This document shows positions 521 to 19,662 of a stretch of 20,000 nt of DNA, piece after piece; position 1 is the stretch's first letter; every line of letters begins with the position of its first letter. The stretch lies in the IMG/VR virus record IMGVR_UViG_3300026549_000002; one strand, written 5' to 3'. A program made the translations under genes and the position numbers. The notes under the pieces are model-generated. The model did no database searches and had not been told where the DNA came from. It worked only from the letters and a program-made list of their open reading frames with translations. Source of the DNA: an uncultured virus (IMG/VR IMGVR_UViG_3300026549_000002) (lineage: Duplodnaviria; Heunggongvirae; Uroviricota; Caudoviricetes).

Positions 521-1822
521 TCACAGTGATTTAATAGTAATATGTTTTTTCAAATCACCATATTTTATATCAAACCCTTTTCTATATGCTTTTGTAGTTA
601 ACACTACAATGTTTAAATCATTATTATCATCAATAGAATAAGAAATGATATTATTATCAGCAATGCTAACTTCCCACTCTGCGGCGGCAGCACCCTTGGC
701 GCTGAACCTTACCTCATCATAAGGAGCTAATACATCTGGGCCAGTTATCTCACTGTCAGTGGACTGGTCCGCCGCATTCATCTCTCTTATCTGTTGGTCA
801 GTACTTGTATAAGTTTCCTTAAGTGCAACTCTTATAATACCAGAGTCTGGATTACTTGCGCTACTACTATAATTATCATTATAAGCTTGTACTTCCCAAC
901 TTTTTCCATTAATAATAACTCTATCAAACCGCTTAAAATAAGCTAATGTATCCGCATCTTTTGTGATGTAAAGTTTCTTAGTATAGTTCATATCATTCCA
1001 AACTACACCTTTCTTTACATTCCACATCAGGGTTTCTTCATTAGGACCAGTCATCCAACCTCTATAGGTCTTCTCTGACTCAGTTCCATCATCATTAATT
1101 ACTATAATAGTAATTTCTTCATCAGCTTTTCTAATTTCCCCTCTAAAATAAGCGGTTTCTTCTGAATACTGCATATAAACAATCCAATATGTATCTGGAA
1201 CCCATTCTTCTTTATTGCCATGAATCCATTTAAACACAGTTCCATTATGAAAATTAGTTTCAACCCAATCATCATTATCTTGAACTGGATCTATTGATAC
1301 AGTATTCTCTATAAAAGGAATGGAAATTATCTTATCTTCATAATCAACTTTTAATTTATCATGATTAATTAAACATCTAAAATAATCTCCTTCTTTATCA
1401 GAAATTATATTATTTAATGCCGCAATATATTCAGCACTAGTTCTTCCAAATTCTGCACCTGCCGCAGCCAACTCTTCATATTGACTTTCTAAAGCGTCTA
1501 AAGTAGCAAGTTGATTTTCTGTCAACTCAATTTGATCTTGGATACTAGTAATAATAGCCACAATAGCTTTTATTAGAGCATCATCACTTGCACTATAAGG
1601 CTGACATATTGCCGCTTGATAAGAATAATAAAGAGCTTTCCTTAAACCTCTTAACTTATCCTCTCTCATACGAGTCCATTGGTCATGAACTCTTGTTACT
1701 TTTTTATATTTTCCTTTGCCAGATACTTCTGTGCCAGATTCATCGACCCTTTTTACCTCACCATAGTATCCAACTCTATTTCGCATATTATTAATACTAT
1801 CCAACATTTCGATCAATATCAT
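521..1822 (-). CDS. Putative head-closure/head-completion protein with C-terminal Ig-like beta domain
   Basis: 433-aa ORF in the connector region (start may be Met at 1807). C-terminal EITGPDVLAPYDEVRFSA...EWEVS is Ig-like. Function inferred from synteny. Confidence 0.6.
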   Translation of the reverse strand: MILIEMLDSINNMRNRVGYYGEVKRVDESGTEVSGKGKYKKVTRVHDQWTRMREDKLRGLRKALYYSYQAAICQPYSASDDALIKAIVAIITSIQDQIELTENQLATLDALESQYEELAAAGAEFGRTSAEYIAALNNIISDKEGDYFRCLINHDKLKVDYEDKIISIPFIENTVSIDPVQDNDDWVETNFHNGTVFKWIHGNKEEWVPDTYWIVYMQYSEETAYFRGEIRKADEEITIIVINDDGTESEKTYRGWMTGPNEETLMWNVKKGVVWNDMNYTKKLYITKDADTLAYFKRFDRVIINGKSWEVQAYNDNYSSSASNPDSGIIRVALKETYTSTDQQIREMNAADQSTDSEITGPDVLAPYDEVRFSAKGAAAAEWEVSIADNNIISYSIDDNNDLNIVVLTTKAYRKGFDIKYGDLKKHITIKSL

Positions 1823-2114
1823 TGAGTAAACTTAAACATTCAAAAATTGTACATCTATAGCGTTCAAAATCATTTTGTTCAGTTAACTCAAATAATCCTT
1901 CCATCTTACATAATAAGGAAAAGAAGGTTCTATGTTGGCCGATAAGTAACCTATCCATTCCTTTAAGTTCCTCAAGAAGAGTGTCCAATGGTTTTTCCCA
2001 ATTGGACCCCTCTTCTCTCATAGGTAATAGTTTATATACTTGATTAATAATACGTTTAATATTATCATGTACAGCGACTGCTTCAATTTCAATGCCATTT
2101 TTAAGTATTACCAT
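1797..2114 (-). CDS. Hypothetical phage morphogenesis-region protein
   Basis: 105-aa helical ORF overlapping both neighbours (translational coupling), GAGGA upstream. Confidence 0.75.
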   Translation of the reverse strand: MVILKNGIEIEAVAVHDNIKRIINQVYKLLPMREEGSNWEKPLDTLLEELKGMDRLLIGQHRTFFSLLCKMEGLFELTEQNDFERYRCTIFECLSLLNDIDRNVG

Positions 2115-2734
2115 TCTTCATCCTCCTCATCAGTAGGATACCAAATAATACCATCGGCAATCCATTCATCATCGTCGCCCTCTTCATTAACTGGCCAACC
2201 ATCACCAATTGTCCATCTTCTATCTTCTGGCTCCATAATCTTAGACATAGTAGAATGAAATATTCCATGTCTATCTCTGACCCTACGTTTATAAAGTCTT
2301 TGTAAATGGAACCCCTCTCTCTCATAATCTTTCTTAAGCATTAATAGCTTTTGCATATGATTTGCTTGAGAGGTAAATTTAAAATCAGAACCACTATACT
2401 TCATGCGAGTATTTTCAATAGAAGCAAGTTGTTGACCAAGCCATTCAACTACCATGTATGTAGCAAGAATATTAATTTCTTCTGGAATTAATCTTCCCTT
2501 AAAAGCGCCTTCCATATAAGTATTACCATTTGCATCAGTTTCCTCATGATGGTTTAACTTATATACAAGCGGCGTTCTAGGAAATTCAAACTTGTGAACC
2601 GCGGTAAGTAGCAGCTCCCTAGCTATCGCCGCAGTTTCTTCTTCAGTTAATTCCATATACATATCATCAGTAATTTTAGCATAAAAACTATCATATATTT
2701 TTGAGAAGGACGTATATTTTACTTTTTCACTCAT
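2108..2734 (-). CDS. Putative head-tail adaptor (connector) protein
   Basis: 208 aa, AGGAAGG RBS, second gene after the capsid gene. Mostly helical with SDFKFTSQANH segment and an acidic Trp-containing tail. Function inferred from position. Confidence 0.6.
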   Translation of the reverse strand: MSEKVKYTSFSKIYDSFYAKITDDMYMELTEEETAAIARELLLTAVHKFEFPRTPLVYKLNHHEETDANGNTYMEGAFKGRLIPEEINILATYMVVEWLGQQLASIENTRMKYSGSDFKFTSQANHMQKLLMLKKDYEREGFHLQRLYKRRVRDRHGIFHSTMSKIMEPEDRRWTIGDGWPVNEEGDDDEWIADGIIWYPTDEEDEEW

Positions 2735-2755
2735 ATTATCCTTCCTTTCGTATAG

Positions 2756-3331
2756 TTATTTATCCTCTATAACTTTAACAACCCTACGAGCAGGAGCCTT
2801 TTCTTCTTTCTTTTCTTCCATCTTCGGAACTGCTGCTCTTCTCTTGCCATTTTCATGTTCTTTATTAGAACCTTCATTAGCATTTCTTTCCATTTCAACA
2901 GCAAAATCTACATCAAATCCAAGTTTATCTCTAATAACTTCTCTCTTCTGAACATCATTAAGCGGAAGTTCTACAGCTAAATCTTTAATCATGTCAAGTA
3001 CACCAGCAGGTGCAAAATCAAGACAGTCTAAAAATTCATCTAAAGTACCATACTGAAGAAGATACTTTACATTCTTCTCGCCATAATAATACTCAGGTTC
3101 TACTTCACCGAGAAGCTCTTCTACTGCGGCCGCATCATCAAGAACTAAACAATTCTGTAACATATACATACCACCAGGAATCCAGGACAGCTTCTGTAGT
3201 TCCTCGAAAGTTAGATCCTTAGTCTCGCCAGGCTGAAATTGTCTATTTAAATTTCCTAAATCTGGAATGATATAGCCTACACTACCTTTATCCCTATTCG
3301 TAACCTTGATAATCTTATCCTTATCTACCAT
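2756..3331 (-). CDS. Hypothetical phage protein downstream of major capsid
   Basis: 191 aa, AGGAG RBS, charged C-terminal tail. Confidence 0.8.
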   Translation of the reverse strand: MVDKDKIIKVTNRDKGSVGYIIPDLGNLNRQFQPGETKDLTFEELQKLSWIPGGMYMLQNCLVLDDAAAVEELLGEVEPEYYYGEKNVKYLLQYGTLDEFLDCLDFAPAGVLDMIKDLAVELPLNDVQKREVIRDKLGFDVDFAVEMERNANEGSNKEHENGKRRAAVPKMEEKKEEKAPARRVVKVIEDK

Positions 3332-3364
3332 TATCTTATAACTCCTTTTATCTCCTTAATATAT

Positions 3365-3395
3365 AAAGAAAAGGGGAAGATTAAAAACCTTCCCC
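3365..3395 (-). terminator. Rho-independent terminator after major capsid gene
   Basis: Minus strand GGGGAAG-9 nt loop-CTTCCCC (3395-3373) followed by TTTTCTTT, 25 nt after the capsid stop codon. Confidence 0.85.
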
Positions 3396-5047: not shown

Positions 5048-5785
5048 TTAATTTCTATTCTGAACTTCTTCAACTGATTTTATCCAATCTGGAGTTGAAT
5101 CGTTCATATCTAAACTAAAAGTAGTAACAGTTTTCTCTGTCATATCTTTATCATTTTTTGATGTATTATCTAAATCAAAATTGACCTTTTTTCTATAACA
5201 AATTACTGCTAATTTTGCTTCAATATCTTCAAGAGAATAATTTCTCTTATTCTCCATTACGTCTTTCTTATCTTCATCAGAAAGCATAGAGAACTGAGCA
5301 ATTAAAGCATCCTTTTCTTTATCTTCTACATCATTTTTGAAAGCAACGAGTTCATTATAAGATTCTTGAAGTGCAGTATACTTAGCCTCAAGTGCTTCAT
5401 ATTCTGCATCAGTATGAAGTGTGCTGTTTGCAACAGGAGTAGGATCTGATTTCGGTTCAGCATTCTCCTCTTCTTCCTCTTCTTCTTCTCTTTCTGGAGC
5501 ACCACCAACTTCGTTACCAAGTTTAGTACGCTCTGTATGAGATTCAGCAGAATCATCTTCTACCTTTACTTCAAATTTCTTCTTATCTTCGTCATCTTCC
5601 TCTTCTTCATCATTTGCATCTTCTTTAGATTCTTCTTGAGCGTCTTCTTGCTCCTCTTCTTCTTTTTTAACAAATTCTGAAGAGCTTGATGTATCTTCTG
5701 CTTCTTCTTGAGTTTCTGTAAATTCAGTTTGAACGATTTCGTCCTCTGTCTTTACTTCATCTACAATGATATTAGCATTGTCCAC
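5048..5785 (-). CDS. Possible nested in-frame scaffold protein (internal GTG start)
   Basis: AAAGGAG (5800-5794) lies 8 nt before an in-frame GTG at 5785, exactly where the acidic half begins. Product would be 245 aa. Confidence 0.5.
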   Translation of the reverse strand: MDNANIIVDEVKTEDEIVQTEFTETQEEAEDTSSSSEFVKKEEEEQEDAQEESKEDANDEEEEDDEDKKKFEVKVEDDSAESHTERTKLGNEVGGAPEREEEEEEEENAEPKSDPTPVANSTLHTDAEYEALEAKYTALQESYNELVAFKNDVEDKEKDALIAQFSMLSDEDKKDVMENKRNYSLEDIEAKLAVICYRKKVNFDLDNTSKNDKDMTEKTVTTFSLDMNDSTPDWIKSVEEVQNRN

Positions 5786-6484
5786 TGTATGCTCTCCTTT
5801 CAATGCAAATTCTAAATCCTTCATCATACTATATAAAGTACGGTTAAAGTTTTCATCAAGAGTGAATTTAGGTGCTGTAACTGCGGCGCCTTCGAAACAA
5901 GGCTCAACATCTTCACCTAAAATACAAAGCTTTGACACTACTGCGTCAGTAATAATAAAGAACTCTGCACCGGTTGCTGAGTTCACACTCCAATGACCAT
6001 CAAGATGCTCATCGTCTAGTTCCATAGATTGTGGGCGGCCGCCATTCTCTAAAGCTGATTTAGCTTCTGGGAACTGCTCTGTCCACAGGTAACCAGTTGT
6101 CATAAGATATTCTCTCTCAACAGCATTACCAAAATCATCAAAGTCATTAAACTTTTGGAACCAAACTTCTGCATCTGGTGAGACAAAACCATAAGGCTTT
6201 GTCAAACAATTAAAATGAATACCATCTGCATCAAGAATTAATTGGTCACCATGGTCTCTGAAGTCCTGCTTATCATCACTATAATAACCAACGATAGGAG
6301 CGCCGCGTAATGTCTTAGCCATTTCTGTAGCTACATCTTTATTAATATAGCTACCATTACGATTTTCACCTATGTAAAATACCTTAATTTCACATTTTGA
6401 CATTAACGGATTAATATCAAGAGGTTGAAGATTAATGAATTGTGGTGATTCAATCGTCGCTATAGATTTATGTGGTAAACTCAT
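5048..6484 (-). CDS. Prohead protease-scaffold fusion
   Basis: 478 aa. Globular N-terminal half (GENRNGSYI, QSMEL, LCILG) followed by a very acidic low-complexity/coiled-coil half. Lies directly after the portal gene. Confidence 0.75.
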   Translation of the reverse strand: MSLPHKSIATIESPQFINLQPLDINPLMSKCEIKVFYIGENRNGSYINKDVATEMAKTLRGAPIVGYYSDDKQDFRDHGDQLILDADGIHFNCLTKPYGFVSPDAEVWFQKFNDFDDFGNAVEREYLMTTGYLWTEQFPEAKSALENGGRPQSMELDDEHLDGHWSVNSATGAEFFIITDAVVSKLCILGEDVEPCFEGAAVTAPKFTLDENFNRTLYSMMKDLEFALKGEHTVDNANIIVDEVKTEDEIVQTEFTETQEEAEDTSSSSEFVKKEEEEQEDAQEESKEDANDEEEEDDEDKKKFEVKVEDDSAESHTERTKLGNEVGGAPEREEEEEEEENAEPKSDPTPVANSTLHTDAEYEALEAKYTALQESYNELVAFKNDVEDKEKDALIAQFSMLSDEDKKDVMENKRNYSLEDIEAKLAVICYRKKVNFDLDNTSKNDKDMTEKTVTTFSLDMNDSTPDWIKSVEEVQNRN

Positions 6485-6498: not shown

Positions 6499-8157
6499 TT
6501 ACATAGACTCTCTATTTGCTAATGTTTTATCCGATTTTTCGTTGTCTGGTTTCTCTGGGCGGCCAGCCTCAGAGTCACTTGAACTAGAACTTGAGGATCC
6601 GTTAGACGAGCCCGCGCCATTCTTGTTTCCATTTCTCTGTGCCAGTGCTTCAGCGTTCATAGTATTTGATGTAAGTGGAGGAACAAATACGCTGACCAGA
6701 TCCAGAACATCGTTCTCGAAGTAAGCAGTAGCTAAAATAGAACTTTGAGATTGGCCTAACGCAATCTGAGGTAACATCTTTGAGTAACCCATCTGTGCTT
6801 GCTCTTTATATAATTTAGCCATCTCTTTGTAATTATAAATCGTAGTAGTTAACACTTGCGCTTTATAATAACACTTTCTATCATTCTTATTATAAGGCTC
6901 TAATAATAAGTTTAAGAACCCTTCAAACTGTTGAATTAAATTATAAAGCGATGCTTCATCATTAAGAATAGAATTATTTAAAGCAGTATTACTATTGCTA
7001 TTAAATTGCATCTGAGATACACCAGCTTCATTATAAACTGCTCTTTCTACCCTTGTTAAATCATCAGTTTGAGTAGTATTACTTTTGTCTGACATATCAG
7101 CCACATCTACATCAGCAAATGTAGTTAATACATCAATACCTATTGCACGACTCAACATTCTTACTGCATTATTATGAAGTGCTTGCGCTTCATCAACATC
7201 AAACACTAAATCGCCATTCTTATCTATAGGCATCTTCTGAATAATAATTTTCAGTAATTTTTGAGCCATTCTTCTTTTGTCAAGGTCCTTCGCTTCATCT
7301 AAATCAATAATAGCGAGTATAACTGAAATAAATGGAGGAAAATCCTCACCATTAAGATTAAACTTTATAACACTTTTAATATCTAATAGATACCAACCAG
7401 ATGAATCACCTGGATCAAGCTTTAAAGTACCATCTTTATACGCCTTATATCCTTTTTTAAATTCAGCAGGGAATAAATTTAATACTTTTGCCCTCTGCTC
7501 ACTATTAGAATACATATCGTCAAAGAAAGCCATATTAAATTCTACTGCGGGTCTACCGTTTACACTATATCTAGACCTACAATAAGCTGGCGGCAGCTCT
7601 TGAACAGACATTCTATTGCCATTAGGAATTAAATATCCATAATAGCAACCGAATCTAATAACTTTTAAAGCAACATCACCAAAAAATTTCTTTACTTCAA
7701 ATTCATCAAGATATTTTAATGCTTTAAAAAAGTTTGTAAGTATTTTATTTCTATTATTATTACTTAAGCTAACATCTGCATCTGCTGCAACACCTAAACC
7801 GCCATTAATATAAGGTGTTACCACCCAGTCATATCTATATAAATATGCCATATATCTACATAATCTATTATAAATACCGCTTGTCTTATAATAGAAATTA
7901 GAAATTTCTCTTAATTTTGGTAAGTCTTGGTTTGCAATAGCCTTTAATATATAGCTTTTGGTTCCGAATTGCTTATTCGCTTTCTTGAAACTACCTAAAT
8001 CATTAATAGTAGCATCTTGAAGTATCTGCGCACCAACTCGAATTTTAGAAAAAGCATGATTTCCTACTAAAGTAGGTGATACATCTTCGGTGTTATCACC
8101 AACAGCCAAAGGAATATTAAATCCTTTGTTCCTAATCTCTTCAATTCTGTTTATCAA
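6499..8157 (-). CDS. Portal protein
   Basis: About 552 aa from TTG at 8157 after GAGGTG (track start 8172 lacks an RBS). Size, position before the protease gene and a low-complexity C-terminus ending GRPEKP fit a portal. Confidence 0.85.
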   Translation of the reverse strand: MINRIEEIRNKGFNIPLAVGDNTEDVSPTLVGNHAFSKIRVGAQILQDATINDLGSFKKANKQFGTKSYILKAIANQDLPKLREISNFYYKTSGIYNRLCRYMAYLYRYDWVVTPYINGGLGVAADADVSLSNNNRNKILTNFFKALKYLDEFEVKKFFGDVALKVIRFGCYYGYLIPNGNRMSVQELPPAYCRSRYSVNGRPAVEFNMAFFDDMYSNSEQRAKVLNLFPAEFKKGYKAYKDGTLKLDPGDSSGWYLLDIKSVIKFNLNGEDFPPFISVILAIIDLDEAKDLDKRRMAQKLLKIIIQKMPIDKNGDLVFDVDEAQALHNNAVRMLSRAIGIDVLTTFADVDVADMSDKSNTTQTDDLTRVERAVYNEAGVSQMQFNSNSNTALNNSILNDEASLYNLIQQFEGFLNLLLEPYNKNDRKCYYKAQVLTTTIYNYKEMAKLYKEQAQMGYSKMLPQIALGQSQSSILATAYFENDVLDLVSVFVPPLTSNTMNAEALAQRNGNKNGAGSSNGSSSSSSSDSEAGRPEKPDNEKSDKTLANRESM

Positions 8158-8212: not shown

Positions 8213-8215
8213 ATT

Positions 8216-8572
8216 TTAATAACCAGCTAAACTAAAAATATAATCATAGTTTATTCGATGCTCATCGGTGTATGGGATAGCAATCAGTTTAATGCCATGC
8301 TCTTCACAATAAATGCGCTTCCGCATGTCATTAAACTGTTGCTTACGTAATCCTTCATATCCACCAAACTTACTTTTAGCTTGGTAATGTTGTATTCCTT
8401 GATATTCAATCAAGAAATCTATATCTCCATTGTCATCGAATACACAAAAGTCAAATCTAAGAGGTCTCCCAGAAGAAGAAACTAAATCTGGAAAAGAATA
8501 TTCCTCAACGAAATCTACTCCCGCCGCAACAAGAATATCCTCTATTTTAATTTCTCCTCTACTTGCTCTCAT
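8216..8572 (-). CDS. Stand-alone Vsr/DUF559/DUF2726-like (PD-(D/E)XK-type) endonuclease
   Basis: 118 aa with SRGE, LRFDF, IEYQGIQH, ND-x-x-K-x-x-YC and KLIAIPY motifs typical of this nuclease domain. AGGAG RBS. Confidence 0.75.
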   Translation of the reverse strand: MRASRGEIKIEDILVAAGVDFVEEYSFPDLVSSSGRPLRFDFCVFDDNGDIDFLIEYQGIQHYQAKSKFGGYEGLRKQQFNDMRKRIYCEEHGIKLIAIPYTDEHRINYDYIFSLAGY

Positions 8573-11051: not shown

Positions 11052-11065
11052 ATTTTTCTCTCCTT

Positions 11066-12628
11066 TTATTTCTGATTCCAATAGGCAACATAGCATTTAT
11101 TCATATCTACTCTGCCTTTAATTCCTTTTACAGAACCACTAGAACTATATTGCCATATTCCAAACCAGTTAGGATGTTTATGTGTAATTTTTGAATTATA
11201 CTGTGCAATCCAAAGTGGATAACTTGTATAATTCGCAGTTTTAATATAATTATTAAACCAATTTAAATTAGCATAGATTCCAGGCTTGCCGCCAAGAGCC
11301 TTCATTTTATTAATAAAAGCAGATGCAGATTGATTTGCATAGCTACTTAATGAACTAGCTTCTAAATCAATATATAATGGCATGTCTGGATTATATTGCT
11401 TACAGGCATTATAAAGTCTTTCAGCTTCTTTTTCTGCGGCCGCCTTAGTTTTAGCTCTACTAAAGATATAGGCACCAACATGAAGTCCTTGTGCTTTTGC
11501 AGCCTTCATATTCTTATCAAATTTACTATCAAGAGTATTTCCATCTGCATATCTAATAATAGCACCATCTACTCCATCAGCTTTTACTTTTGCCCAATCA
11601 ATATCTCCTTGCCACACAGAAACATCAATAACTTTATATACAGACTTTGTTGGAGTTGCGGCAGGAGTGCTTGGCGTCTTATTAGCACTAGAACTACTAG
11701 AGCTATTTGTAGCTGGTTTTAAGTCACCATTAAGCCATTTTTGTACAGCTTTTGAAGTATTTGGTCCCCAGTATCCATCTGGATTACTTAAACCGAGATA
11801 TTTCTGAAATGCTTTAATTGTATTTGGGCCAAGTTCACCGTCTGGACCACTTAACTTTAGCATTTTTTGTAATGCTTTAATACAATTACTGCCGCCGCTA
11901 CCATAGGAGATACCACTACTGAATCCACTATGATACTTCTTTAAAGATTTACTTTGTCCACTAATTTTTCCATCCTGTGTTGTTCCCATCTTCTTCTGTA
12001 AAGCCTTAATGGAAGCTGGACCAAATTTACCATCAACAGTTAACTTACCTGGAGTCGGAGTTGGATCAACAGAAGGAACTGGAGTATCACCGCCGCCAAT
12101 ACTGCCAGCTGGTGGATTAGCAGTCCAAATCTGCGGAATTAATCCTGCCATAGTAGTTTCATAACAGTACCAACCATCATGATGTCTACCGCCTGAATCT
12201 TTGCAATAAAAATAGTGTTTTCCATTCTGAACCTTATAATCAACAAAAGCTACATAGTGTCCACCTGTTGTCCAAGTAACACCGCCTCTGCTACCGCCTC
12301 TGAATAGAATAACACCAAATTTATATTTTCTATCTTTTAATGTCTCCCAAACACTTTTCATATTTGGGTGATTAATAACACTAAAACCATAATGTTGAAG
12401 TGTCTTTGTAATTCCTGCCCAAAGAGTTCCTTGATTCCTAATGGCGAATCCTTGATTTACCATATAAGGTCTTAAATCTTTAGGAGTCCAATTTTTATAT
12501 TTATCTAATTCTATCATTACATGCAGACAAGCACAACAACCGCATCCGCATCCACCAAATGTAGAACCTTTTGGATAAGGTAAACTTGCCCATCTAGAAT
12601 CAGCTTGTCTATAAATATTTTTATTCAT
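11066..12628 (-). CDS. Endolysin: C39-like peptidase + PG-binding repeats + GH25 muramidase
   Basis: N-terminal YRQxDxRW...GCG...GHYV. Central DGxxGPxT/S..ALQ repeats. C-terminal IDVSVWQG, YIDLE, WIAQY and WQYSSSG..VDMN GH25 motifs. Follows the holin gene. Confidence 0.88.
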   Translation of the reverse strand: MNKNIYRQADSRWASLPYPKGSTFGGCGCGCCACLHVMIELDKYKNWTPKDLRPYMVNQGFAIRNQGTLWAGITKTLQHYGFSVINHPNMKSVWETLKDRKYKFGVILFRGGSRGGVTWTTGGHYVAFVDYKVQNGKHYFYCKDSGGRHHDGWYCYETTMAGLIPQIWTANPPAGSIGGGDTPVPSVDPTPTPGKLTVDGKFGPASIKALQKKMGTTQDGKISGQSKSLKKYHSGFSSGISYGSGGSNCIKALQKMLKLSGPDGELGPNTIKAFQKYLGLSNPDGYWGPNTSKAVQKWLNGDLKPATNSSSSSSANKTPSTPAATPTKSVYKVIDVSVWQGDIDWAKVKADGVDGAIIRYADGNTLDSKFDKNMKAAKAQGLHVGAYIFSRAKTKAAAEKEAERLYNACKQYNPDMPLYIDLEASSLSSYANQSASAFINKMKALGGKPGIYANLNWFNNYIKTANYTSYPLWIAQYNSKITHKHPNWFGIWQYSSSGSVKGIKGRVDMNKCYVAYWNQK

Positions 12629-12920: not shown

Positions 12921-12935
12921 TTAAACCTCCTAACT

Positions 12936-12980
12936 AAAATGCGGCCGGTGCTTGGGTTCCGCGCCCGAGCTGCCGCCGCA
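12936..12980 (-). terminator. GC-rich hairpin between terminase and holin (terminator/attenuator candidate)
   Basis: Imperfect inverted repeat TGCGGC..GCTCGGG / CCCAAGC..GCCGCA followed by TTTT on the minus strand, immediately before the holin RBS. Confidence 0.5.
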
Positions 12981-12982
12981 AT

Positions 12983-14725
12983 CTATGAGAAGAACAAGAA
13001 ATCGTTAATATTTCTCTTTTTCCGCTTTCTCATTCTCTCTTCTTCTTTTTTTATGTAATACATTCCATATACAAAAGCTGAGAATCTATCCTTCTTTATG
13101 CTTCTGCTGGACTGTTTTAGAATAATATTAACTCCTTGATTCTCTTCAACTAAATTTAACATTTGCGCTTTGAGAGCTGTTGTAAGAACAAATGGCATCA
13201 ACCTTTCATTTCTTTGTTCAGAAGTCATATTCTGACCAAGTTTAGTAGACATTAGTTTAGTTTTAGCTGTTGCTTCATCTATTAAGAACTGCACCCTGCC
13301 GCTACTCATTTGTGTCTGAGTATAACTATAGGCCTCAGTATTAATAGGAGCATTAGCTTTAATTAGATACATAGCATCTTTTTCTACATCGGGTGCTTTA
13401 TTTACATCCTTATATTGATTTATAATATCTTCAAAAGTGCCACCCTCTACTCCAAATGGAGGAAGAATATCACCATTATCTGGATCAACCTGTGCTTTTG
13501 TCATAAAATCAATAAGTCCAACACCTAAACCATTAGCATCTATTGCCATAGTTCTTGCTTTGTATCTATAATATAACTTCTTTAAATTAATAGCTTGTTT
13601 TTCAAAATCTTCAGCTTCATAGCTGAACATATTTACCAAACTCTTAATTGCAGAGCCTTTTGGTTGTGGTGTAACCTTAAAAATACAAGCCTCAGTTGTA
13701 CATCCTATTCTACCAACGTCCACTCCAATAACATAGAAAGCAGTTTTGCTACTTCTATTGCTATATTCATCTTCTGGTTGATTTAATACTCTATATTTAT
13801 CAAATTTCTCCGCAGAATAGAAAGCATTTTCTGCATCGCCACTCCAAATACTTCTATACTCACGGTCAAAAGATTCATCGTTGAATGTTCCTTGCATACG
13901 TAATTGGTCAACGAAGTCTTCATTGAGTAGCCCTTCGCAAACTGGAGTCTCATAGGTTCCACCCATTATCATAACTTGGTCTGGTTCGATAATAGATTGA
14001 ACCAATAGCTCAATCAGTTTAGCATAAGCAAAACTATTCTTCCAACCCGCAGTGGTAATATAAATCTGGCTCTTGTTAACATTTTCTTCTTTGTGGCGGC
14101 TGCCGTCAGGAAGTCTCCTATCTACGTTTGTTGTAGGTATGATAACTTCATTTAGAATGTCTCCATCAATTAGAACACATTCCTCCATTAATCCACCGGT
14201 ACGACGCTGCCCTCTAGAGGACTGCCGCGCAGTTAAAATGTTAATCTTACTACCATTTTTAAATACATATTCAACATTATCTTTTGTTTTCTTTGTTTTT
14301 CCACGGCCCCAGTCAATTTCATTCTCAAATGCTGGTATCAATCGGCAAATTTCTTCAATCTTAGCAATTGTAATACTTGCCGCTTGTTCCTTTCCTCCTG
14401 TTGTTACAAATAACTCTGCTCCAGGATAAAAGATACATCTAAGCATTAATACCATCATGCTTAAGAATGACTTACTATAGGCTCTTGGGAAAGTAGCATA
14501 TACGTATCTATGACGCATTACTACTCTAATAAAAATTCTTTGATAAAAATAGAATTTGAAATTACTATTTGGACCTTTAATAAAATCTACAAAATAGTCT
14601 GGATATTCACGAAAGAAACTAATTATATGTCTTAAATTAGACATTTGATTAGCTAAGCGTTCTTCAGAAAGACCTTGTTTGCGACTAGTCTGACTTGAAA
14701 GATTCATTAAATCCTGTAAGCTCAT
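12983..14725 (-). CDS. terL: Terminase large subunit
   Basis: 580 aa. FYFYQ adenine-binding motif, Walker A-like PRAYSKS, Walker B-like GLMEE, ITTAG coupling motif, RNase H-like nuclease motifs GVDVGR, IDANGLG and KDRFSA. Confidence 0.93.
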   Translation of the reverse strand: MSLQDLMNLSSQTSRKQGLSEERLANQMSNLRHIISFFREYPDYFVDFIKGPNSNFKFYFYQRIFIRVVMRHRYVYATFPRAYSKSFLSMMVLMLRCIFYPGAELFVTTGGKEQAASITIAKIEEICRLIPAFENEIDWGRGKTKKTKDNVEYVFKNGSKINILTARQSSRGQRRTGGLMEECVLIDGDILNEVIIPTTNVDRRLPDGSRHKEENVNKSQIYITTAGWKNSFAYAKLIELLVQSIIEPDQVMIMGGTYETPVCEGLLNEDFVDQLRMQGTFNDESFDREYRSIWSGDAENAFYSAEKFDKYRVLNQPEDEYSNRSSKTAFYVIGVDVGRIGCTTEACIFKVTPQPKGSAIKSLVNMFSYEAEDFEKQAINLKKLYYRYKARTMAIDANGLGVGLIDFMTKAQVDPDNGDILPPFGVEGGTFEDIINQYKDVNKAPDVEKDAMYLIKANAPINTEAYSYTQTQMSSGRVQFLIDEATAKTKLMSTKLGQNMTSEQRNERLMPFVLTTALKAQMLNLVEENQGVNIILKQSSRSIKKDRFSAFVYGMYYIKKEEERMRKRKKRNINDFLFFS

Positions 14726-15948
14726 TCTGCATCCTCTGGTTCAGCTTCTGCACCAAGCACAGCCGCGTCTTCTTGTTTCTGCTCGTCTAAGCTATTAGAA
14801 TATTCCAGAAAATCTTCATCAGACATCTCAGGTGCTTCAAGACCTTTATCCTTAGCCTCTTCCCTATCTTTCTTCTGTTGATCCACAATTTCTTTCTTCT
14901 TAATATATTCTTCAATCTGTCTGGCAAGAGCAGTATCAGAATAAATAAGTGACTTAGTATATTCTTTTAAGTCTTTGATAACTGTGTCAATAATGTCAAC
15001 AGGTGCATCCAATTCAAATCTTGGTATTTGACCGCCATTTTTCTCGCAATAGGCTACTAATTCACCTACGCTATCAACGAAATCATTTTTTTCTTCTTTC
15101 TTCCTTTGCGCTGCCGCAAAGTTAGCTAATTTACGTTGATTACCTAGCTCTCTTGAAAGTTTTGTAAAACCTTCATAATCACCCATATCTAGGGCCTGAT
15201 TTGCTTTTAAATTTAGTTTACAAATAATAATTAAGGAATTAATAGTATCTGCATCTTGAATATCGAATGAATTGGTCATTTCAGTATAAGTTTTCTCTAA
15301 ATCAATCCATTCTTGTGGTTTATACAAAGTACCCCACTTCATAGCCAGATATTTCATATCATCTTCAGTGAGGTCTGCCGCAGGATTCGGCAAATTTACT
15401 TGAGCAAATTGTTGTTCTTGAAAAGGATTATGGAATTGTGTATCTAATTCTGCAGAAGTCTTAGGTACATATTCCTTATTTTGCGTTGGAGTAGACATCA
15501 TAGTCTTATATTCAGCTTCAGAAATCTCTCCAGCTTCAAATTTCTCCTTTAATTCCTTTTCGAATATCTCATCTGATTGCCTTTTTTGAGCAGTATTTTT
15601 TCTTTCCTTTTCAGCTTGAAGTGCTTGACACTTTTCAGTATCTGCCCAACCATATTGGTTCCATTGCTTCAGTTTCATTTTAGAAAGATATTTACCAAAA
15701 ACAGACATACCATTCATTTTATCTGGGTTTTTAGCAAAAGCTCTATCCCTTAATATATTCCATTCAGACGGAACATAAGGTACATCCATTTTTTCAAGCA
15801 ACCACAAAAATGTGTTAGGGTCGTAATTGTCTATATGCATAGTCAAACAATCCTTACACATTTCAGTCTTTTGCCCATTCTTATAAGTATAAAACTTAAG
15901 TTCATCCATAGTGCGGCCGCATTTTTGACAAGTTAATTTTTGACCCAT
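14722..15948 (-). CDS. CxxC zinc-finger protein coupled to terL; candidate terminase small subunit
   Basis: 408 aa, N-terminal CQKC...CKDC, helical remainder, stop overlaps terL start (ATGA). TerS call is positional only. Confidence 0.6.
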   Translation of the reverse strand: MGQKLTCQKCGRTMDELKFYTYKNGQKTEMCKDCLTMHIDNYDPNTFLWLLEKMDVPYVPSEWNILRDRAFAKNPDKMNGMSVFGKYLSKMKLKQWNQYGWADTEKCQALQAEKERKNTAQKRQSDEIFEKELKEKFEAGEISEAEYKTMMSTPTQNKEYVPKTSAELDTQFHNPFQEQQFAQVNLPNPAADLTEDDMKYLAMKWGTLYKPQEWIDLEKTYTEMTNSFDIQDADTINSLIIICKLNLKANQALDMGDYEGFTKLSRELGNQRKLANFAAAQRKKEEKNDFVDSVGELVAYCEKNGGQIPRFELDAPVDIIDTVIKDLKEYTKSLIYSDTALARQIEEYIKKKEIVDQQKKDREEAKDKGLEAPEMSDEDFLEYSNSLDEQKQEDAAVLGAEAEPEDAE

Positions 15949-16007: not shown

Positions 16008-17132
16008 TTATCTTGCCCAATTAACACCCTTATAGTTAATTGTCTTCACTTGTTTATTTTTATTGGTCTTAGCATTTCTGCATGATTTGCAAATACTATA
16101 GAATCCATCTTTACTTGTATTATTTTTTGAGAAAAACATATTATGAGCTAATTTGATCCTGCCGCAACGCGAACATCTCTTCCATTTACCATACTCTTCA
16201 TAGGTAAAATGCCACTCTAACCAGTCTCTTTGCGCTGCTTCCGCAATCAACTTAGGAATCTTCTTACGCCAGAGTGATGAGATGTACTCTACCGAATGCC
16301 GCACTCCATAATCATTTTCAAGAGTCGCTTGAATATTTTCATTAGTCATACCATCTATTTTATAAATAATTAAATCATAAAACATTGGGTATCTATCTTT
16401 TATATGTTTTTCTATTAAATTTTCTAAATCAGTAATTACATAGCGTGCATCACTATCAAACCTATCCCAAGTATCTTGCTTAATCTTACAATAATTACAT
16501 AAGACAATAGAAACGTGTTCTGGAATCAATAGAGAAAAACCATTTATATCAAGTGAGCCGTTAGGCTCAACTTGAATCTCTTCAATTAATGGAATATATG
16601 AGAATGTACGAGTAAGATTAGTAATATGAATAGGTTGATAATAAGAATTTTTTAGAATATATTGGTCTTTCCGCATTTCAATAATAGACTTTTTAATAAC
16701 ATATTTCTGGCGGCCGCTGGCTTGTGGCAGCTTCTTTTCTAAGTCTTCTATTGCTTCGCGCAGTTGCTTTAATCCAGGAACTACTTCGATGTCTTGCGGT
16801 GTAATTGATATTTTAGGTGTAAAGATAATATTTTTATCATTAGTAATCATACTATAAATACCATCTTCACCATTTTCAAACTTAGCTATTAAACCTTCAA
16901 ATGAGGTTTCTCTTTTATTAACAGTAACCATATGATTATCTGTTAGTATTTTCTTCTTTGCCCTCTCTTGTTTATCCATGGCGAATATCATATAATCCGC
17001 CATTATTTCAAGATACCTAGGAGTTAATTTATCTGGGTCAGTAGATGCTATTATTTTATTAACTAATTCTACCCTTGCCGCAGGTTCTTTAATCGTATAA
17101 TCCAGCTTTAAGGTTGTATTTTCTTCTGACAT
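16008..17132 (-). CDS. Putative DNA-binding protein (HTH-like segment and C-terminal Zn ribbon)
   Basis: 374 aa. KIDGMTNENIQATL...SVEYISSLW resembles an HTH; CSRC...CKSC zinc ribbon. AGGAG RBS and its own promoter. Confidence 0.65.
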   Translation of the reverse strand: MSEENTTLKLDYTIKEPAARVELVNKIIASTDPDKLTPRYLEIMADYMIFAMDKQERAKKKILTDNHMVTVNKRETSFEGLIAKFENGEDGIYSMITNDKNIIFTPKISITPQDIEVVPGLKQLREAIEDLEKKLPQASGRQKYVIKKSIIEMRKDQYILKNSYYQPIHITNLTRTFSYIPLIEEIQVEPNGSLDINGFSLLIPEHVSIVLCNYCKIKQDTWDRFDSDARYVITDLENLIEKHIKDRYPMFYDLIIYKIDGMTNENIQATLENDYGVRHSVEYISSLWRKKIPKLIAEAAQRDWLEWHFTYEEYGKWKRCSRCGRIKLAHNMFFSKNNTSKDGFYSICKSCRNAKTNKNKQVKTINYKGVNWAR

Positions 17133-17218: not shown

Positions 17219-17247
17219 TTGCTTTTTTCAAAATTTTTTGTTATAAT
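17219..17247 (+). promoter_or_regulatory. Sigma-A promoter (rightward)
   Basis: TTGCTT (17219-17224)-17 bp-TATAAT (17242-17247) with extended TG. Confidence 0.8.
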
Positions 17248-17257
17248 ATATATAGAA

Positions 17258-17725
17258 ATGAAAGATAAAATACCAAATGTTGCGATTATAGGCGGAGATT
17301 ATCAATCAATAGACTTACTTTCAGAAAAGATATACGATATTATATGGCCAAGAGGTATATATACTATCAATATATTATATTCTGATGAAAATGCTTTAGG
17401 CTACATATGGGCAAGAGAGAATGGGATGCCAGTGAAACGAGTCTGGGCGCATTCACCAAGCAAGCTCCGCCGCAGATTAATATTTTTTGAAGCAGATTAT
17501 ATATTTTTTCTATTGCATGATGAACAGTGGATTAAGAATATAATCATGGAATATAAAATGACTGGCAAACATGGTACAGTCATATATACACCTTATGCGG
17601 CGGCACCCTCCTTTACCGGTTTTACACCTCCCGCCGCCGCATTATCACCATTACCAGACTTCATTTGGGAACCAGATGAAGATTTTTATTATGAGGAGTT
17701 ATTTAAATGGATAATAGATACTTAG
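17258..17725 (+). CDS. Degenerate SLOG-family (DUF2493-like) protein
   Basis: ATG at 17258 (the track's TTG at 17219 is the -35 box). VAIIGGD and ALGYIWARENGMPV resemble the DUF2493 SLOG pattern, but the GaxGaD loop is absent. Confidence 0.55.
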   Translation: MKDKIPNVAIIGGDYQSIDLLSEKIYDIIWPRGIYTINILYSDENALGYIWARENGMPVKRVWAHSPSKLRRRLIFFEADYIFFLLHDEQWIKNIIMEYKMTGKHGTVIYTPYAAAPSFTGFTPPAAALSPLPDFIWEPDEDFYYEELFKWIIDT

Positions 17726-17879: not shown

Positions 17880-18374
17880 ATGAGAATAGGTATTATAGGA
17901 TTGCGACAAGCTGAAATTGAAGGACAAGAGGAAAGAATACGAGAATGGATTGCGGCTGAGCTGGACCAGTTCCGAGGATCCGATTTAACGGGGCCGCCGC
18001 ATGATTGTTTTTGTGCAGGTGGAAAGGGTGTTGACCATATTTTTGGACAGTGTGTTCTTGCTAGTGGTAATAATTTACACCTTATCTTTCCATATCCTAG
18101 AAAAGCTAATAAAGAAGGACAACAACTCGCTGCTGCCGCAATGTCTGTTTCTTATATAGCATCAAAATATAGCAAAGGATGTTATGCTTTACAAAATCTA
18201 AATATGGTAGATAATATAGATACGTTATTGGTTGTTTGGAGAGGTAAGATGACGGGCGCCATTGGTCGCACTATTAGGATGGCACAGACCGCCGGCCGCA
18301 CGATTCATTACCTGAATTTAGAGGAGGATTCTGATGTTTGGGAAGAAGAACGAACCAGTGAGGTTGATTCATAA
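17880..18374 (+). CDS. SLOG-family protein (YpsA/DUF1273-like), divergent
   Basis: RIGIIGLR, GGKGVD, LHLIFPY, N..MVDNIDTLLVVWRG and TIRMAQTAGRTI match the YpsA-like SLOG layout. AGGAGG RBS. Confidence 0.75.
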   Translation: MRIGIIGLRQAEIEGQEERIREWIAAELDQFRGSDLTGPPHDCFCAGGKGVDHIFGQCVLASGNNLHLIFPYPRKANKEGQQLAAAAMSVSYIASKYSKGCYALQNLNMVDNIDTLLVVWRGKMTGAIGRTIRMAQTAGRTIHYLNLEEDSDVWEEERTSEVDS

Positions 18375-18732
18375 TGATTGGGGTAGTTTTATAAAGATAC
18401 CTAATGATGGGTATTTTTGGAACAAGCATCATACATATTTTGTGCTTGGCTCTGCAGATGATATGGATATATCAGAAGATGGAATCTTCTGTACTACTTT
18501 TGTAAATTATCCTGTGGAGAAGATGAAAGTTAGAGTAATGAGTTCAGATATTTATCCGCAGTTTATGATAATGGAGATTGATGTATCTGTAAAAGATGCA
18601 GATCTTTTTGAGCAAGGTCTTGAAAAACTGATGTATAGACTAAATTTTAAAATTAAAGATTATCGGAGCGCCAGCTCTGGGTTCTGGAGAGATGTATATA
18701 AGGAAGCTGAGGAAATAGACAATGGAAATTAA
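18334..18732 (+). CDS. Hypothetical protein
   Basis: 132 aa, GAGGAGG RBS, overlaps both neighbours. Confidence 0.75.
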   Translation: MFGKKNEPVRLIHNDWGSFIKIPNDGYFWNKHHTYFVLGSADDMDISEDGIFCTTFVNYPVEKMKVRVMSSDIYPQFMIMEIDVSVKDADLFEQGLEKLMYRLNFKIKDYRSASSGFWRDVYKEAEEIDNGN

Positions 18733-18907
18733 GAGCACTAGTACTAGTTATACAACATCAAAGACTTGTCCACATATATTACCTTGTGGTATGTGTAGAC
18801 TAACTATGTCACAATGTCCTCGTGGTTGGATGTATAAAACATGGGATATTACTCCTATATATTGCGGCAGCGATAAGACTACTGCTGATGCAGTGAGTAA
18901 AATATAA
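18722..18907 (+). CDS. Small Cys-rich hypothetical protein
   Basis: 61 aa, CPHILPCGMCRLTMSQC, GAGGA RBS, TAATG overlap with next gene. Confidence 0.7.
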   Translation: MEIKSTSTSYTTSKTCPHILPCGMCRLTMSQCPRGWMYKTWDITPIYCGSDKTTADAVSKI

Positions 18908-19092
18908 TGTGGTTTTTAATTGGATTCCTTGCAGGATTAATTTTCTGTTTTGCGACAGATGGTTGGAGAGTTAGAATGTTATTAAGCAGAGGATATGATA
19001 ATGCTGTAAGAGATATTTTAGAATATGGATATTATTATAATAAAGATAATAAACGTGTAGATTTAGGAGGTGTCGCAGACCATGAGGAATAG
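18907..19092 (+). CDS. Small membrane-anchored hypothetical protein
   Basis: 61 aa, N-terminal hydrophobic WFLIGFLAGLIFCFA, translationally coupled. Confidence 0.7.
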   Translation: MWFLIGFLAGLIFCFATDGWRVRMLLSRGYDNAVRDILEYGYYYNKDNKRVDLGGVADHEE

Positions 19093-19294
19093 TTGGTGTG
19101 AGACTTGTGCAAGAAAATATATGTGCTATGATATAGAAGTGCGGCCAAGTTGTTATATACCTGTGACTAGTAATGAAAGAGTAGAGCCGCCGCAGTTAGA
19201 TGGAGCAATGATTTTATTATATGATGATGTATTAGATGTAATAAAGAAACGTAGGAACGTCGTAGACCATGACAACAAAAGAAAAAATATATGA
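19082..19294 (+). CDS. Small Cys-rich hypothetical protein
   Basis: ATG at 19082 after AGGAGG. CETC...C...C pattern, 70 aa. Confidence 0.7.
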   Translation: MRNSWCETCARKYMCYDIEVRPSCYIPVTSNERVEPPQLDGAMILLYDDVLDVIKKRRNVVDHDNKRKNI

Positions 19295-19421
19295 AATTGG
19301 GATAGCTTATAATAAGATAGATGCAGTATTGAAAGATACTGATATAGATTTGTGGGCGTATAAATATTTAGAGGATGCGTTAGTATATTTAGAATTTTAT
19401 TTTGAGGAGCAAGAGATATAA
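19269..19421 (+). CDS. 50-aa hypothetical protein
   Basis: Not in track. MTTKEKIYEIGIAYNKIDAVLKDTDIDLWAYKYLEDALVYLEFYFEEQEI*, ending in a TAATG overlap with the next gene. Confidence 0.65.
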   Translation: MTTKEKIYEIGIAYNKIDAVLKDTDIDLWAYKYLEDALVYLEFYFEEQEI

Positions 19422-19648
19422 TGGCTTTTAAGGTTGCGCCAAATTGCTACTGGTATAGTAAAGAAACAAACGACCCATCTTATTGCAGACTGCGGCGGGA
19501 CTATATTGAGGATATAGGCGGCTGTACCTATTGTTATATGGATAAGGATGTGGTAGATATTTTAATGCAAAGTTTAAATAATTTGATGTTGGATAAGATT
19601 ATTAAAGTTGAAAAAATAAGGCACGGAATGGATGAGTTTGAGAACTGA
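19421..19648 (+). CDS. Small Cys-containing hypothetical protein
   Basis: 75 aa, GAGGAG RBS, NCYWY...C...CTYC. Confidence 0.7.
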   Translation: MAFKVAPNCYWYSKETNDPSYCRLRRDYIEDIGGCTYCYMDKDVVDILMQSLNNLMLDKIIKVEKIRHGMDEFEN

Positions 19649-19662
19649 TTGCGGCGGGAGTG

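Follow-up and report, generated by a model that had tools for sequence, protein, structure and literature searches.

The window examined here, the whole of a 20,000-nucleotide stretch from an uncultured tailed virus (Caudoviricetes; IMG/VR record IMGVR_UViG_3300026549_000002), contains late genes from a tailed phage that infects Gram-positive bacteria. Pfam and PHROGs scans recognize a portal, a large terminase subunit, an HNH endonuclease and a sigma-factor-like protein (Table 1), together with a holin. The composition over the 20 kb is G 14.9%, C 20.1% and G+C 35.0%, and scattered throughout this DNA is the pentamer GCSGC (GCCGC or GCGGC, S being G or C), which is the subject of the present analysis. 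The initial annotation, made from the letters alone, had put the word at about 60 copies where about 6 would be expected, roughly a tenfold excess. The exact count bears this out: there are 61 sites (37 GCCGC and 24 GCGGC on the + strand), spanning positions 681-19655, against a zero-order expectation of 6.6, and this 9.2x excess places GCSGC first among the 512 pentamer classes of the window. The six NotI words that had been listed lie exactly where they were placed (Table 1), as do the CGG codons at 14224 and 16298 and the TGC GGC CGC at 15913.

The excess did not vanish under the null models that take composition into account. It stands at 8.8x under a first-order (Markov-1) and 5.3x under a second-order (Markov-2) null, falling to 1.28x at maximal order (Markov-3); the tetramers GCCG and CCGC are themselves enriched 2.0-2.8x in the window, and at that order the pentamer excess is therefore carried by its own tetramers. 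When codons were shuffled within the window genes with the amino acids preserved, 14.8 +/- 3.1 sites were expected and 51 observed (3.4x, z=11.6, 0 of 2000 shuffles), so that amino-acid and codon composition explain about 2.5x of the 9x and a factor of 3.4x is left. Other all-GC pentamers are not equally enriched unless they overlap chains of the word: CCGCC (5.2x), CGGCC (3.2x) and CGCCG (3.0x) are sub-words of GCSGCSGC chains, and the remainder reach at most 1.8x, with CCCGG at 0.15x.

The sites occupy all frames and both orientations, as had been claimed. The first gene list of the window held open reading frames (ORFs) of at least 80 amino acids, to which small ORFs were added for the tally of codon phases; 28 sites then begin at codon position 1 (Ala-Ala), 19 at position 2 and 10 at position 3, and four are non-coding. 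Of the copies that had been taken for non-coding, those at 12941-12979 are indeed intergenic, while the one at 19651, directly after the stop of a small ORF, is only probably so. Six sites between 18864 and 19518 lie in small + strand ORFs; the region concerned (18722-19648, +) holds five tightly packed ORFs of 50-75 amino acids, three of which have several cysteines.

Table 1. GCSGC sites of the window in their coding context, and the genes recognized by domain scans.
Feature	Position	Strand	Context
portal gene	6499-8172	-	Pfam/PHROGs scans
HNH endonuclease gene	8216..8572	-	Pfam/PHROGs scans
large terminase gene	12983-14725	-	Pfam/PHROGs scans
sigma-factor-like gene	16008..17132	-	Pfam/PHROGs scans
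GCGGCGGC, 2 overlapping sites	681..688		ORF 521..1822(-), GCC GCC GCA = AAA
GCCGC	771..775		ORF 521..1822(-), GCG GCG = AA
GCCGC	1419..1423		ORF 521..1822(-), GCG GCA = AA
GCCGC	1461..1465		ORF 521..1822(-), GCG GCA = AA
GCCGC	1611..1615		ORF 521..1822(-), GCG GCA = AA
GCGGC	2569..2573		ORF 2108..2734(-), codon position 3, ACG CCG CTT = TPL
GCCGC	2628..2632		ORF 2108..2734(-), GCG GCG = AA
GCGGCCGC (NotI word)	3126..3133		ORF 2756..3331(-), GCG GCC GCA = AAA
GCGGC	5883..5887		ORF 5048..6484(-), GCC GCA = AA
GCGGCCGC (NotI word)	6035..6042		ORF 5048..6484(-), codon position 2, GGC GGC CGC = GGR
GCCGC	6302..6306		ORF 5048..6484(-), codon position 2, CGC GGC = RG
GCGGC	6559..6563		portal gene, codon position 2, GGC CGC = GR
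GCGGC	7590..7594		portal gene, codon position 3, CTG CCG CCA = LPP
GCCGC	8523..8527		HNH endonuclease gene, GCG GCG = AA
GCGGCCGC (NotI word)	8662..8669		CW_7 lysin gene 8643..11096(-), GCG GCC GCA = AAA
GCGGC	10462..10466		CW_7 lysin gene, GCC GCA = AA
GCCGC	11288..11292		GH25 endolysin gene 11066..12628(-), codon position 2, GGC GGC = GG
GCGGCCGC (NotI word)	11436..11443		GH25 endolysin gene, GCG GCC GCA = AAA
GCGGC	11658..11662		GH25 endolysin gene, GCC GCA = AA
GCCGCCGC, 2 overlapping sites	11891..11898		GH25 endolysin gene, codon position 2, AGC GGC GGC = SGG
GCCGC	12092..12096		GH25 endolysin gene, codon position 2, GGC GGC = GG
non-coding spacer, terminase/holin genes	12941..12979	-	GCGGC (12941) + GCCGCCGC (12972); stem UGCGGC...GCCGCA then UUUU
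GCCGC	13298..13302		terminase large subunit gene, codon position 2, AGC GGC = SG
GCGGC	14096..14100		terminase gene, codon position 2, AGC CGC = SR
GCCGC	14224..14228		terminase gene, codon position 3, GCG CGG CAG = ARQ
GCCGC	14379..14383		terminase gene, GCG GCA = AA
GCCGC	14762..14766		ORF 14722..15948(-), GCG GCT = AA
GCCGC	15113..15117		ORF 14722..15948(-), GCG GCA = AA
GCCGC	15377..15381		ORF 14722..15948(-), GCG GCA = AA
GCGGCCGC (NotI word)	15913..15920		ORF 14722..15948(-), codon position 2, TGC GGC CGC = CGR
GCCGC	16161..16165		sigma-factor-like gene, codon position 2, TGC GGC = CG
GCCGC	16298..16302		sigma-factor-like gene, codon position 3, GTG CGG CAT = VRH
GCGGCCGC (NotI word)	16710..16717		sigma-factor-like gene, codon position 2, AGC GGC CGC = SGR
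GCCGC	17077..17081		sigma-factor-like gene, GCG GCA = AA
GCCGC	17469..17473		ORF 17219..17725(+), codon position 2, CGC CGC = RR
GCGGCGGC; inverted partner of 17633-17640	17597..17604		ORF 17219..17725(+), GCG GCG GCA = AAA
GCCGCCGC	17633..17640		ORF 17219..17725(+), GCC GCC GCA = AAA
GCGGC	17952..17956		ORF 17880..18374(+), GCG GCT = AA
GCCGCCGC	17993..18000		ORF 17880..18374(+), codon position 3, GGG CCG CCG CAT = GPPH
GCCGC	18135..18139		ORF 17880..18374(+), GCC GCA = AA
GCCGC	18295..18299		ORF 17880..18374(+), codon position 2, GGC CGC = GR
GCGGC	18864..18868		small ORF 18722..18907(+), codon position 2, TGC GGC = CG
GCGGC	19141..19145		small ORF 19070..19294(+), codon position 3, GTG CGG CCA = VRP
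GCCGCCGC	19186..19193		small ORF 19070..19294(+), codon position 3, GAG CCG CCG CAG = EPPQ
GCGGC	19492..19496		small ORF 19421..19648(+), codon position 3, CTG CGG CGG = LRR
GCGGC	19518..19522		small ORF 19421..19648(+), codon position 2, GGC GGC = GG
GCGGC, probably non-coding	19651..19655		directly after stop of small ORF 19421..19648(+)

Anatomy of the word and synonymous codon choice

No DNA near-identical to the window was found among deposited phages. Searches with the portal protein gave 186 relatives among viral contigs, of which 80 were kept, and 59 among genome bins; more remote matches are, among others, phage Phass-1 (37% identity) and Enterococcus phage EF1 (28%). Five large related records were compared: G002 (89 kb, with 96% nucleotide identity to the window across the 13.5 kb that can be aligned), G003 and G004 (about 134 kb each, with terminal repeats and rated complete), G005 (66 kb) and G006 (131 kb). 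The phage of the window occurs in bovine gut metagenomes from about a dozen studies. GCSGC is present at 3050 copies per Mb in the window and, in G003 and G002, at 2150-2480 copies per Mb; its density is even along three whole or large genomes.

The preference is an exact one. In G002 every one-mismatch variant of GCSGC falls from 8.3x to 2.4x or less, and the eight all-GC pentamers free of overlap with GCSGC chains are found at 0.46-1.17x of the codon shuffle. The word is its own reverse complement, a degenerate GC-only palindrome, and its flanks are mirror-symmetric as well: with a 3' T on either strand the enrichment is 2.2-4.4x, with A, C or G mostly 8-15x, the best flanked form being K-GCSGC-M (K, G or T; M, A or C) and the disfavoured positions being after A or before T. 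These features bear on the possibility of a replisome bias, in which the phage's own replication machinery (DnaE-type polymerase, NrdDG, dUTPase) would generate the word, through a context-dependent error or a nucleotide-pool bias, with no recognition at all. In its favor, a Pol III alpha-type polymerase and genes of nucleotide metabolism are present in every enriched phage examined, and the trait goes with the phage lineage rather than with the sampled bacteria (see below). It accords poorly, however, with five specific positions, mirrored flanks and other GC-only words that are not enriched, or with two observations detailed below, an equal bonus for one or two wobble changes and a clean switch to GCGC in a close sub-lineage; we regard it as improbable.

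The initial annotation had also held that the word is not polarised like Chi, and this is the case: in G002, 50 copies of the form GCCGCA lie on the coding strand and 46 on the template strand, and no polarity switch of the word exists along G003 or G004. The Chi sites known from Firmicutes have GCGG or GCGCG cores, and the two families of words enriched in these phages contain GCGG and GCGC. It is conceivable that GCSGC, or a GCGG core within it, is read by a host helicase-nuclease of the AddAB/RecBCD type, protecting linear DNA and promoting recombination; the cyanobacterial word HIP1 (see below), for its part, is reported in a recent preprint to make transformation more efficient, the effect depending on homology and methylation (bioRxiv 10.1101/2024.09.10.611283). 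Such a role is nevertheless at odds with the absence of polarity, both along the two genomes with terminal repeats and relative to genes, and with the symmetry of GCSGC and its flanks. The B. subtilis-type AGCGG has precisely the least favoured flank (NCCGCT is at 0.5-2.2x in G002), co-binned bacteria are not enriched (0-1.5x, the host being unproven), and the trait is retained throughout a clade whose hosts probably belong to many taxa. A Chi-like function therefore seems to us about as doubtful as a replisome bias.

Sites often overlap in chains (in G002, 45 pairs at distance 3 against 0.5 expected), and their spacing is otherwise Poisson-like, with the addition of a few hairpins. Inverted pairs separated by 6-20 nt show a mild excess (10 against 1 in G002), involving a small minority of sites. 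The stem in the spacer at 12941-12979 looks like a terminator; the predicted fold of 12925-12990 is not significant (z -1.44). A repeated mobile element, of the repetitive extragenic palindrome (REP) or miniature inverted-repeat transposable element (MITE) kind, was considered as a source of the word and rejected: the flanks carry no information beyond about three bases plus a GCN periodicity, and the spacing is Poisson-like.

Within genes, the word makes itself felt through the choice of synonymous codons. Under the codon shuffle of G002, 120 sites are observed against 46.9 expected in phase 0, 63 against 10.4 in phase 1 and 16 against 2.0 in phase 2, corresponding to 2.6x, 6.1x and 8.1x (z 10-17); whole relatives give z values of about 15-22. 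The excess is also present in the DNA between called genes of the relatives, part of which consists of small ORFs. Among codon pairs, GCC-GCA (126 observed, 24.1 expected), GCG-GCG (65, 13.2), GGC-GGC (67, 12.7) and GGC-CGC (19, 4.6) are all over-represented; GCS-GCT pairs are not enriched (0.8x). The codon-pair tables yield an odds ratio of about 6 for Ala-Ala, where one wobble change is needed, and of about 6 for GGC-GGC and 4.5 for GGC-CGC, where two are needed. With one or two changes so similarly rewarded, it is the complete word, and not any single base, to which the bonus attaches. The pressure depends neither on reading frame or strand nor on the gene or part of the genome, and it steers synonymous codon choice wherever the amino acids permit GCSGC.

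In view of the well-known habits of phages, it might be asked if the excess is simply a by-product of restriction-site avoidance, directed at GCWGC (W, A or T) and other sites and acting together with amino-acid and codon constraints. GCWGC is indeed at 0.59-0.76 of the codon shuffle in G002-G004; in the cultured phage PMBT24, a very distant relative described below, it is absent where the shuffle gives 71, and the whole phase-0 GCSGC excess of that phage follows from this; and amino-acid and codon composition alone supply the 2.5x share of the 9x mentioned above. But in G002, G003 and G006 the depletion of GCWGC is restricted to phase 0 (0.57-0.61), where it is tied to GCSGC by synonymy, phases 1 and 2 being at 0.83-2.8, and in G005, a genome without GCSGC excess, phase-0 GCWGC is at 0.99. 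When the null was conditioned on the observed GCWGC count, the ratio of observed to null was still 1.63 (z=21) in G002, 1.40 (z=14.8) in G003 and 1.22 (z=5.4) in PMBT24, with phase 1 of G002 at 63 against 10.6 (5.9x) and phase 2 at 16 against 2.1 (7.6x). Moreover, the GCSGC and GCWGC ratios are uncorrelated across 60 loci (rho -0.01). The GCWGC deficit, being confined to the Ala-Ala phase, is therefore the flip side of a GCSGC preference and not restriction avoidance. For this clade the by-product explanation is largely refuted, to the point that we consider it essentially excluded. The earlier contention that no codon effect is involved thus holds under the codon shuffle, in all phases and after conditioning on GCWGC.

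Some other words are depleted in these genomes. GATC is at 0.3x in the window, at 0.0-0.2x in several relatives and at 0 of 297 expected in PMBT24, a typical case of restriction avoidance. AAAAA/TTTTT is at 0.66-0.68 of the codon shuffle in the coding sequence of the window and G002 (z -5 to -10). Glycine pairs of the type GGA-GGN are depleted too (GGA-GGT, for example, 17 against 62), probably reflecting an avoidance of Shine-Dalgarno-like GGAGG inside genes.

Distribution among phages and sampled bacteria

Of the 81 sequences compared (80 viral-contig loci and the window), the 60 of at least 8 kb were retained for word counts. Their median GCSGC enrichment is 6.8x, with 48 of the 60 at 5x or more and only four below 2x. 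Entire records give 8.3x (G002), 7.3x (G003), 7.5x (G004) and 6.3x (G006), and among the relatives from genome bins, where 47 of the 59 loci were at least 8 kb long and were examined, 39 of the 47 reach at least 3x. Three loci (L069, L071 and L078) have GCSGC at 0.7-1.8x but GCGC at 5.1-5.4x; on a quick portal tree they form a tight clade nested among GCSGC-rich sisters at 6.5-8.4x. One sub-lineage has thus replaced GCSGC by GCGC. TGCGCA reaches 7.5x in G005, and still other lineages add words of the CCGC, CGCGC or GCGCA type.

As controls, we have included phage T4 and three phages of Bacillales. In T4 (34% G+C) GCSGC is at 1.1x, with a shuffle ratio of 0.94. The Bacillales phages have 0-3 sites per 50 kb: none against 17.1 expected in Tsamsa (Bacillus), none against 18.1 in A511 (Listeria) and 3 against 17.4 in Sundance (Brevibacillus). 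AT-richness therefore does not produce the GCSGC signal. The statement that phages usually avoid such sites is true of these Bacillales controls, related phages that avoid the whole word family, and the present clade is the exception. The distant phages EF1 and Phass-1 have values of 2.2x and 3.4x.

A cultured representative, albeit a very distant one, is available in the Enterocloster phage PMBT24 (OQ326496.2), which its description presents as a virulent phage of E. bolteae with a genome of 99,962 bp and 32.1% G+C (PMC11035940); a term search of that text gave no hit for 'palindrom'. Its portal is 22% identical to that of the window over part of the length (E=6e-4), and its set of replication genes is similar. 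PMBT24 has 112 GCSGC sites against 21.3 expected (5.3x, rank 1, shuffle ratio 3.45, z=17). It has no GCWGC and no GATC at all, a case of true avoidance with GCWGC depleted in all phases. The phase-0 excess of GCSGC follows from this avoidance, but phases 1 and 2 still have 20 sites against 7.0 and 8 against 1.5.

Are the bacteria around these phages enriched as well? The contigs that carry the rpoB gene in five bins holding phage loci have GCSGC at 0-1.5x, against 3-10x at the phage loci of the same bins, and the top words of the co-binned bacteria are CCACC, CACCA and CCAGC. The bins of L117-L175 bear names as varied as Methanobrevibacter, Prevotella, Treponema, Endomicrobiaceae, Gastranaerophilales, Bacilli, Erysipelotrichaceae and others, a diversity that suggests mis-binning of phage contigs, and a single bin (L117, L120, L121) contains three different contigs of the clade. 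In the 1.1-Mb bin G008, 10 of the 12 GCSGCSGC words are on one 52-kb contig (C11), which from its number and length we infer to be the phage contig.

For a broader bacterial screen, we have employed this chained word GCSGCSGC with its reversed form CGSCGSCG as the control, in 401 Bacilli and 401 Clostridia genomes, the resulting tables being read by eye (two unpublished genomes, G596 and G510, are counted among the Clostridia but carry no weight in any claim). G003 and G002 have about 400-500 GCSGCSGC per Mb and forward-to-control ratios of 4.5-8.8; none of the 802 sampled Bacilli and Clostridia genomes combines a phage-like density with a phage-like ratio. Six Clostridia with extreme forward-to-control ratios were considered as carriers and rejected, their stretches being of 45-57% G+C with GCSGC at 0.9-1.5x. 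Mid-G+C Clostridia (G429, G478, G576, G610, G682, G736 and others) have 100-320 GCSGCSGC and only 0-3 CGSCGSCG, an imbalance that suggests strong avoidance of CGSCG-type words in these bacteria, GCSGC itself being near expectation. A phage-borne permease gave no lead to a host, its best match being 45% identical over part of its length and 39-40% over the full length. The GCSGC enrichment belongs to the phage lineage, and the sampled bacteria do not share it.

The records hold several other features of note. In the window, the two cell-wall-lysis genes (8643-12628, -) adjoin with a 31-base overlap; the product of one, 817 aa long, has three CW_7 repeats and matches NlpC/P60 and PG_binding_1 weakly, and that of the other is a GH25 endolysin of 520 aa with PG-binding domains. 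In-frame TAG codons, 2-8 per gene, interrupt the portals of L019, L023, L025, L027, L044, L048, L053 and L080, and that of L051 has one in-frame TGA; the window portal has no in-frame stop. The coding fraction of G004 under table 11 is only 69%, and this, like the TAG codons, fits stop-codon recoding (code 15) as in Phass-1. G003 has a nucleoside-salvage set unusual for a phage, consisting of a xanthine/uracil permease, a nucleoside 2-deoxyribosyltransferase, a PnrA-like nucleoside-binding lipoprotein and a guanylate kinase (L085:4053-5779, L086:13527-14738, L084:7491-8135). Finally, a small protein of G002 (L095:2477-2743) has an Mtd_N domain (the N-terminal domain of the major tropism determinant), which may hint at the target of a diversity-generating retroelement.

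Site turnover and the forces behind the word

Individual sites come and go. The retention of GCSGC between relatives, set beside that of control 5-mers, is 0.87/0.85, 0.89/0.78, 0.69/0.83, 0.54/0.40 and 0.10/0.25, and between close relatives the word and the controls are kept about equally well, with gains roughly matching losses. The 21 disjoint close pairs have 203 sites in common; at 65 others the two members differ by one base and at 29 by several. Of the 65 one-base differences, 35 fall at the word centre, 29 of these as S<>W transitions. Where an Ala-Ala pair is conserved, GCS serves as its first codon in 54-71% of cases in G002 and G003 (39-71% across five enrichment-carrying genome pairs), the figure for Ala codons not followed by GC being only 15-21%. 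The presence of an Ala-Ala site in one genome has an odds ratio of about 2 with its presence in the other, which is not significant (n=41). Sites turn over while the Ala-Ala bias is kept; it is therefore the density that is maintained and not the individual sites.

A functionless ratchet could have this effect. Methylation-coupled biased repair, one of the explanations put forward in the initial annotation, is also the model of Elhai: a cytosine methyltransferase would mark GCSGC, and mark-directed repair, or Vsr-like very-short-patch repair, would convert words that are one base off, so that GCSGC piles up without serving any purpose itself. The turnover without positional conservation and the bonus for complete words both fit this scheme, as does the fact that 29 of the 65 one-off differences are S<>W transitions at the centre. 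The words enriched in the clade (GCSGC, GCGC, CCGC and CGCGC) resemble typical cytosine-methyltransferase sites. In cyanobacteria, according to Elhai's article, each HIP word has a matching methyltransferase, and the GCsGC of Cyanothece PCC 7822 goes with two predicted GCsGC methyltransferases (PMC4390886).

The proposed link with methylation did not, however, find support in the phages themselves. The families PF00145, PF01555, PF02086 and PF03852 (C5, N4/N6 and D12 methyltransferases and Vsr) have no member in five related records, two of them complete (G001-G004 and G006), and Pfam and PHROGs scans of the window, of 70 G002 proteins and of 121 and 91 G003 proteins found neither a methyltransferase nor a Vsr. 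PMBT24 has a 175-aa protein annotated as 'methyltransferase Dmt', but no Pfam family matches it. What the clade does encode is a replication apparatus of its own (a Pol III alpha-type polymerase, DnaB-type helicase, primase, gyrase A and B and NAD-dependent ligase), with RecJ-like and RecD-like proteins and, for nucleotide metabolism, NrdDG and dUTPase. If the methylation system were instead encoded by the host, the host should be enriched too, contrary to the 0-1.5x of the co-binned contigs and the blank among the 802 genomes; and the deamination-type variants GTSGC and GCSAC are not depleted. The functionless methylation/repair ratchet, although the main rival, is weakened because no methyltransferase was found and the sampled bacteria are without the signal, and we hold it to be unlikely.

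The reading that we prefer, tentatively and at a little less than an even chance, is weak selection on GCSGC density for a symmetric, putative DNA-recognising factor acting on phage DNA. What the data show is a pressure on the DNA that acts on the whole word, treats both strands alike and belongs to the phage lineage; its cause is a matter of inference. Specificity at five positions, mirrored flanks and a clean switch to a different palindrome together point to recognition by a symmetric sequence-specific protein. A pressure on double-stranded phage DNA, exerted at the level of the whole 5-mer, would create and maintain GCSGC at about 2-3 sites per kb; the word would be the site recognised by a symmetric, probably dimeric, putative factor that binds or modifies DNA in a sequence-specific way; it would be kept abundant by weak positive selection for a high density of sites; and it might serve as a dispersed 'self' mark for protection, recombination or replication, in the manner of Chi, uptake sequences and HIP words. 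A Chi-like role and a replisome bias fit less well.

Several observations tell against density selection for such a factor. The scans of the window and of the 70 G002 and 121 G003 proteins yielded no candidate site-specific DNA binder. Repair directed at one-off sites would likewise give a constant bonus for the whole word, and individual sites that are no better conserved than controls fit density selection and a functionless biased-repair ratchet equally. The term 'phage-specific' rests on bins and genome samples, not on a proven host. Finally, there are 47 copies of GCGGCCGC in G002-G004, G006 and the window, whereas the mirror chain GCCGCGGC, which likewise consists of two overlapping GCSGC sites, does not occur at all; a 47:0 imbalance is not explained by a simple 5-mer recognition model.

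Density selection for a recognising factor also admits a more specific and more speculative version: a gut/rumen siphophage clade with a Pol III alpha-type polymerase would mark its own DNA with a word read by a putative lineage-specific factor, no recognisable methyltransferase being needed, and the specificity would have shifted between sub-lineages (GCSGC, GCGC and CCGC/CGCG types). We consider this possible, though well short of probable; if true, it would be the first case of HIP/Chi-like genome marking in a virus.

Relation to known systems and significance

The nearest precedent is the highly iterated palindrome (HIP) of cyanobacteria, to which the initial annotation had pointed with good reason. 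HIP1 is GCGATCGC, and Elhai (2015) gives GCsGC, the very word discussed here, as the 'alternative HIP' of Cyanothece PCC 7822, HIP words occurring at 1000-2000 per Mb (PMC4390886). The phage word is a GC-only palindrome and the most over-represented of its length; it numbers thousands per Mb (2150-3050 in the phages), inside genes and in all frames, and related genomes carry another word in its place (GCGC in the phages). The differences are that its carrier is a virus lineage and not a cell, the surrounding sampled bacteria lacking the word, and that no cognate methyltransferase was detected in the phage records searched. Nor was any clear sign seen, in the phage genomes compared, of the positional conservation and periodicity reported for HIP1 (PMC5861425). 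As the descriptive features of HIP are present and the cognate methyltransferase is not, we would class the phage word as a variant of HIP: a HIP-like hyper-abundant palindrome specific to a phage lineage.

Two other comparisons are instructive. Restriction-site avoidance in phages, as exemplified by GCNGC in the Bacillales phages, concerns the same word family and likewise acts via synonymous codons, but it has the opposite sign: here the word is enriched 5-12x, while Tsamsa and A511 have 0 sites per 50 kb. For phages in general, Rusinov et al. (2018) record only a slight overabundance of GCNGC, the compositional bias being about 1.1 (PMC6286503). Chi sites and DNA uptake sequences are, like GCSGC, short dispersed words that are dense genome-wide, lie within genes and are upheld by selection or molecular drive rather than by coding needs. 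They are, however, asymmetric and polar, or else tied to competence, and situated on cellular genomes, whereas GCSGC is symmetric, unpolarised and on a phage. Our search of titles and abstracts retrieved no report of a hyper-abundant GCSGC word in a phage.

Phages are known for purging short palindromes from their genomes as a response to restriction, and the present clade does the opposite with a word of the restriction type. In practical terms, GCSGC density is a strong signature for spotting contigs of this clade in metagenome bins filed under unrelated organisms. The function of HIP words has been in question for decades, and PMBT24, with 112 sites in 100 kb, would offer a small cultured system, genetically simpler, in which that function could be put to the test. 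If GCSGC is a functional mark, it points to a new interaction between phage DNA and a sequence-specific factor, perhaps in protection, recombination, replication priming or modification.

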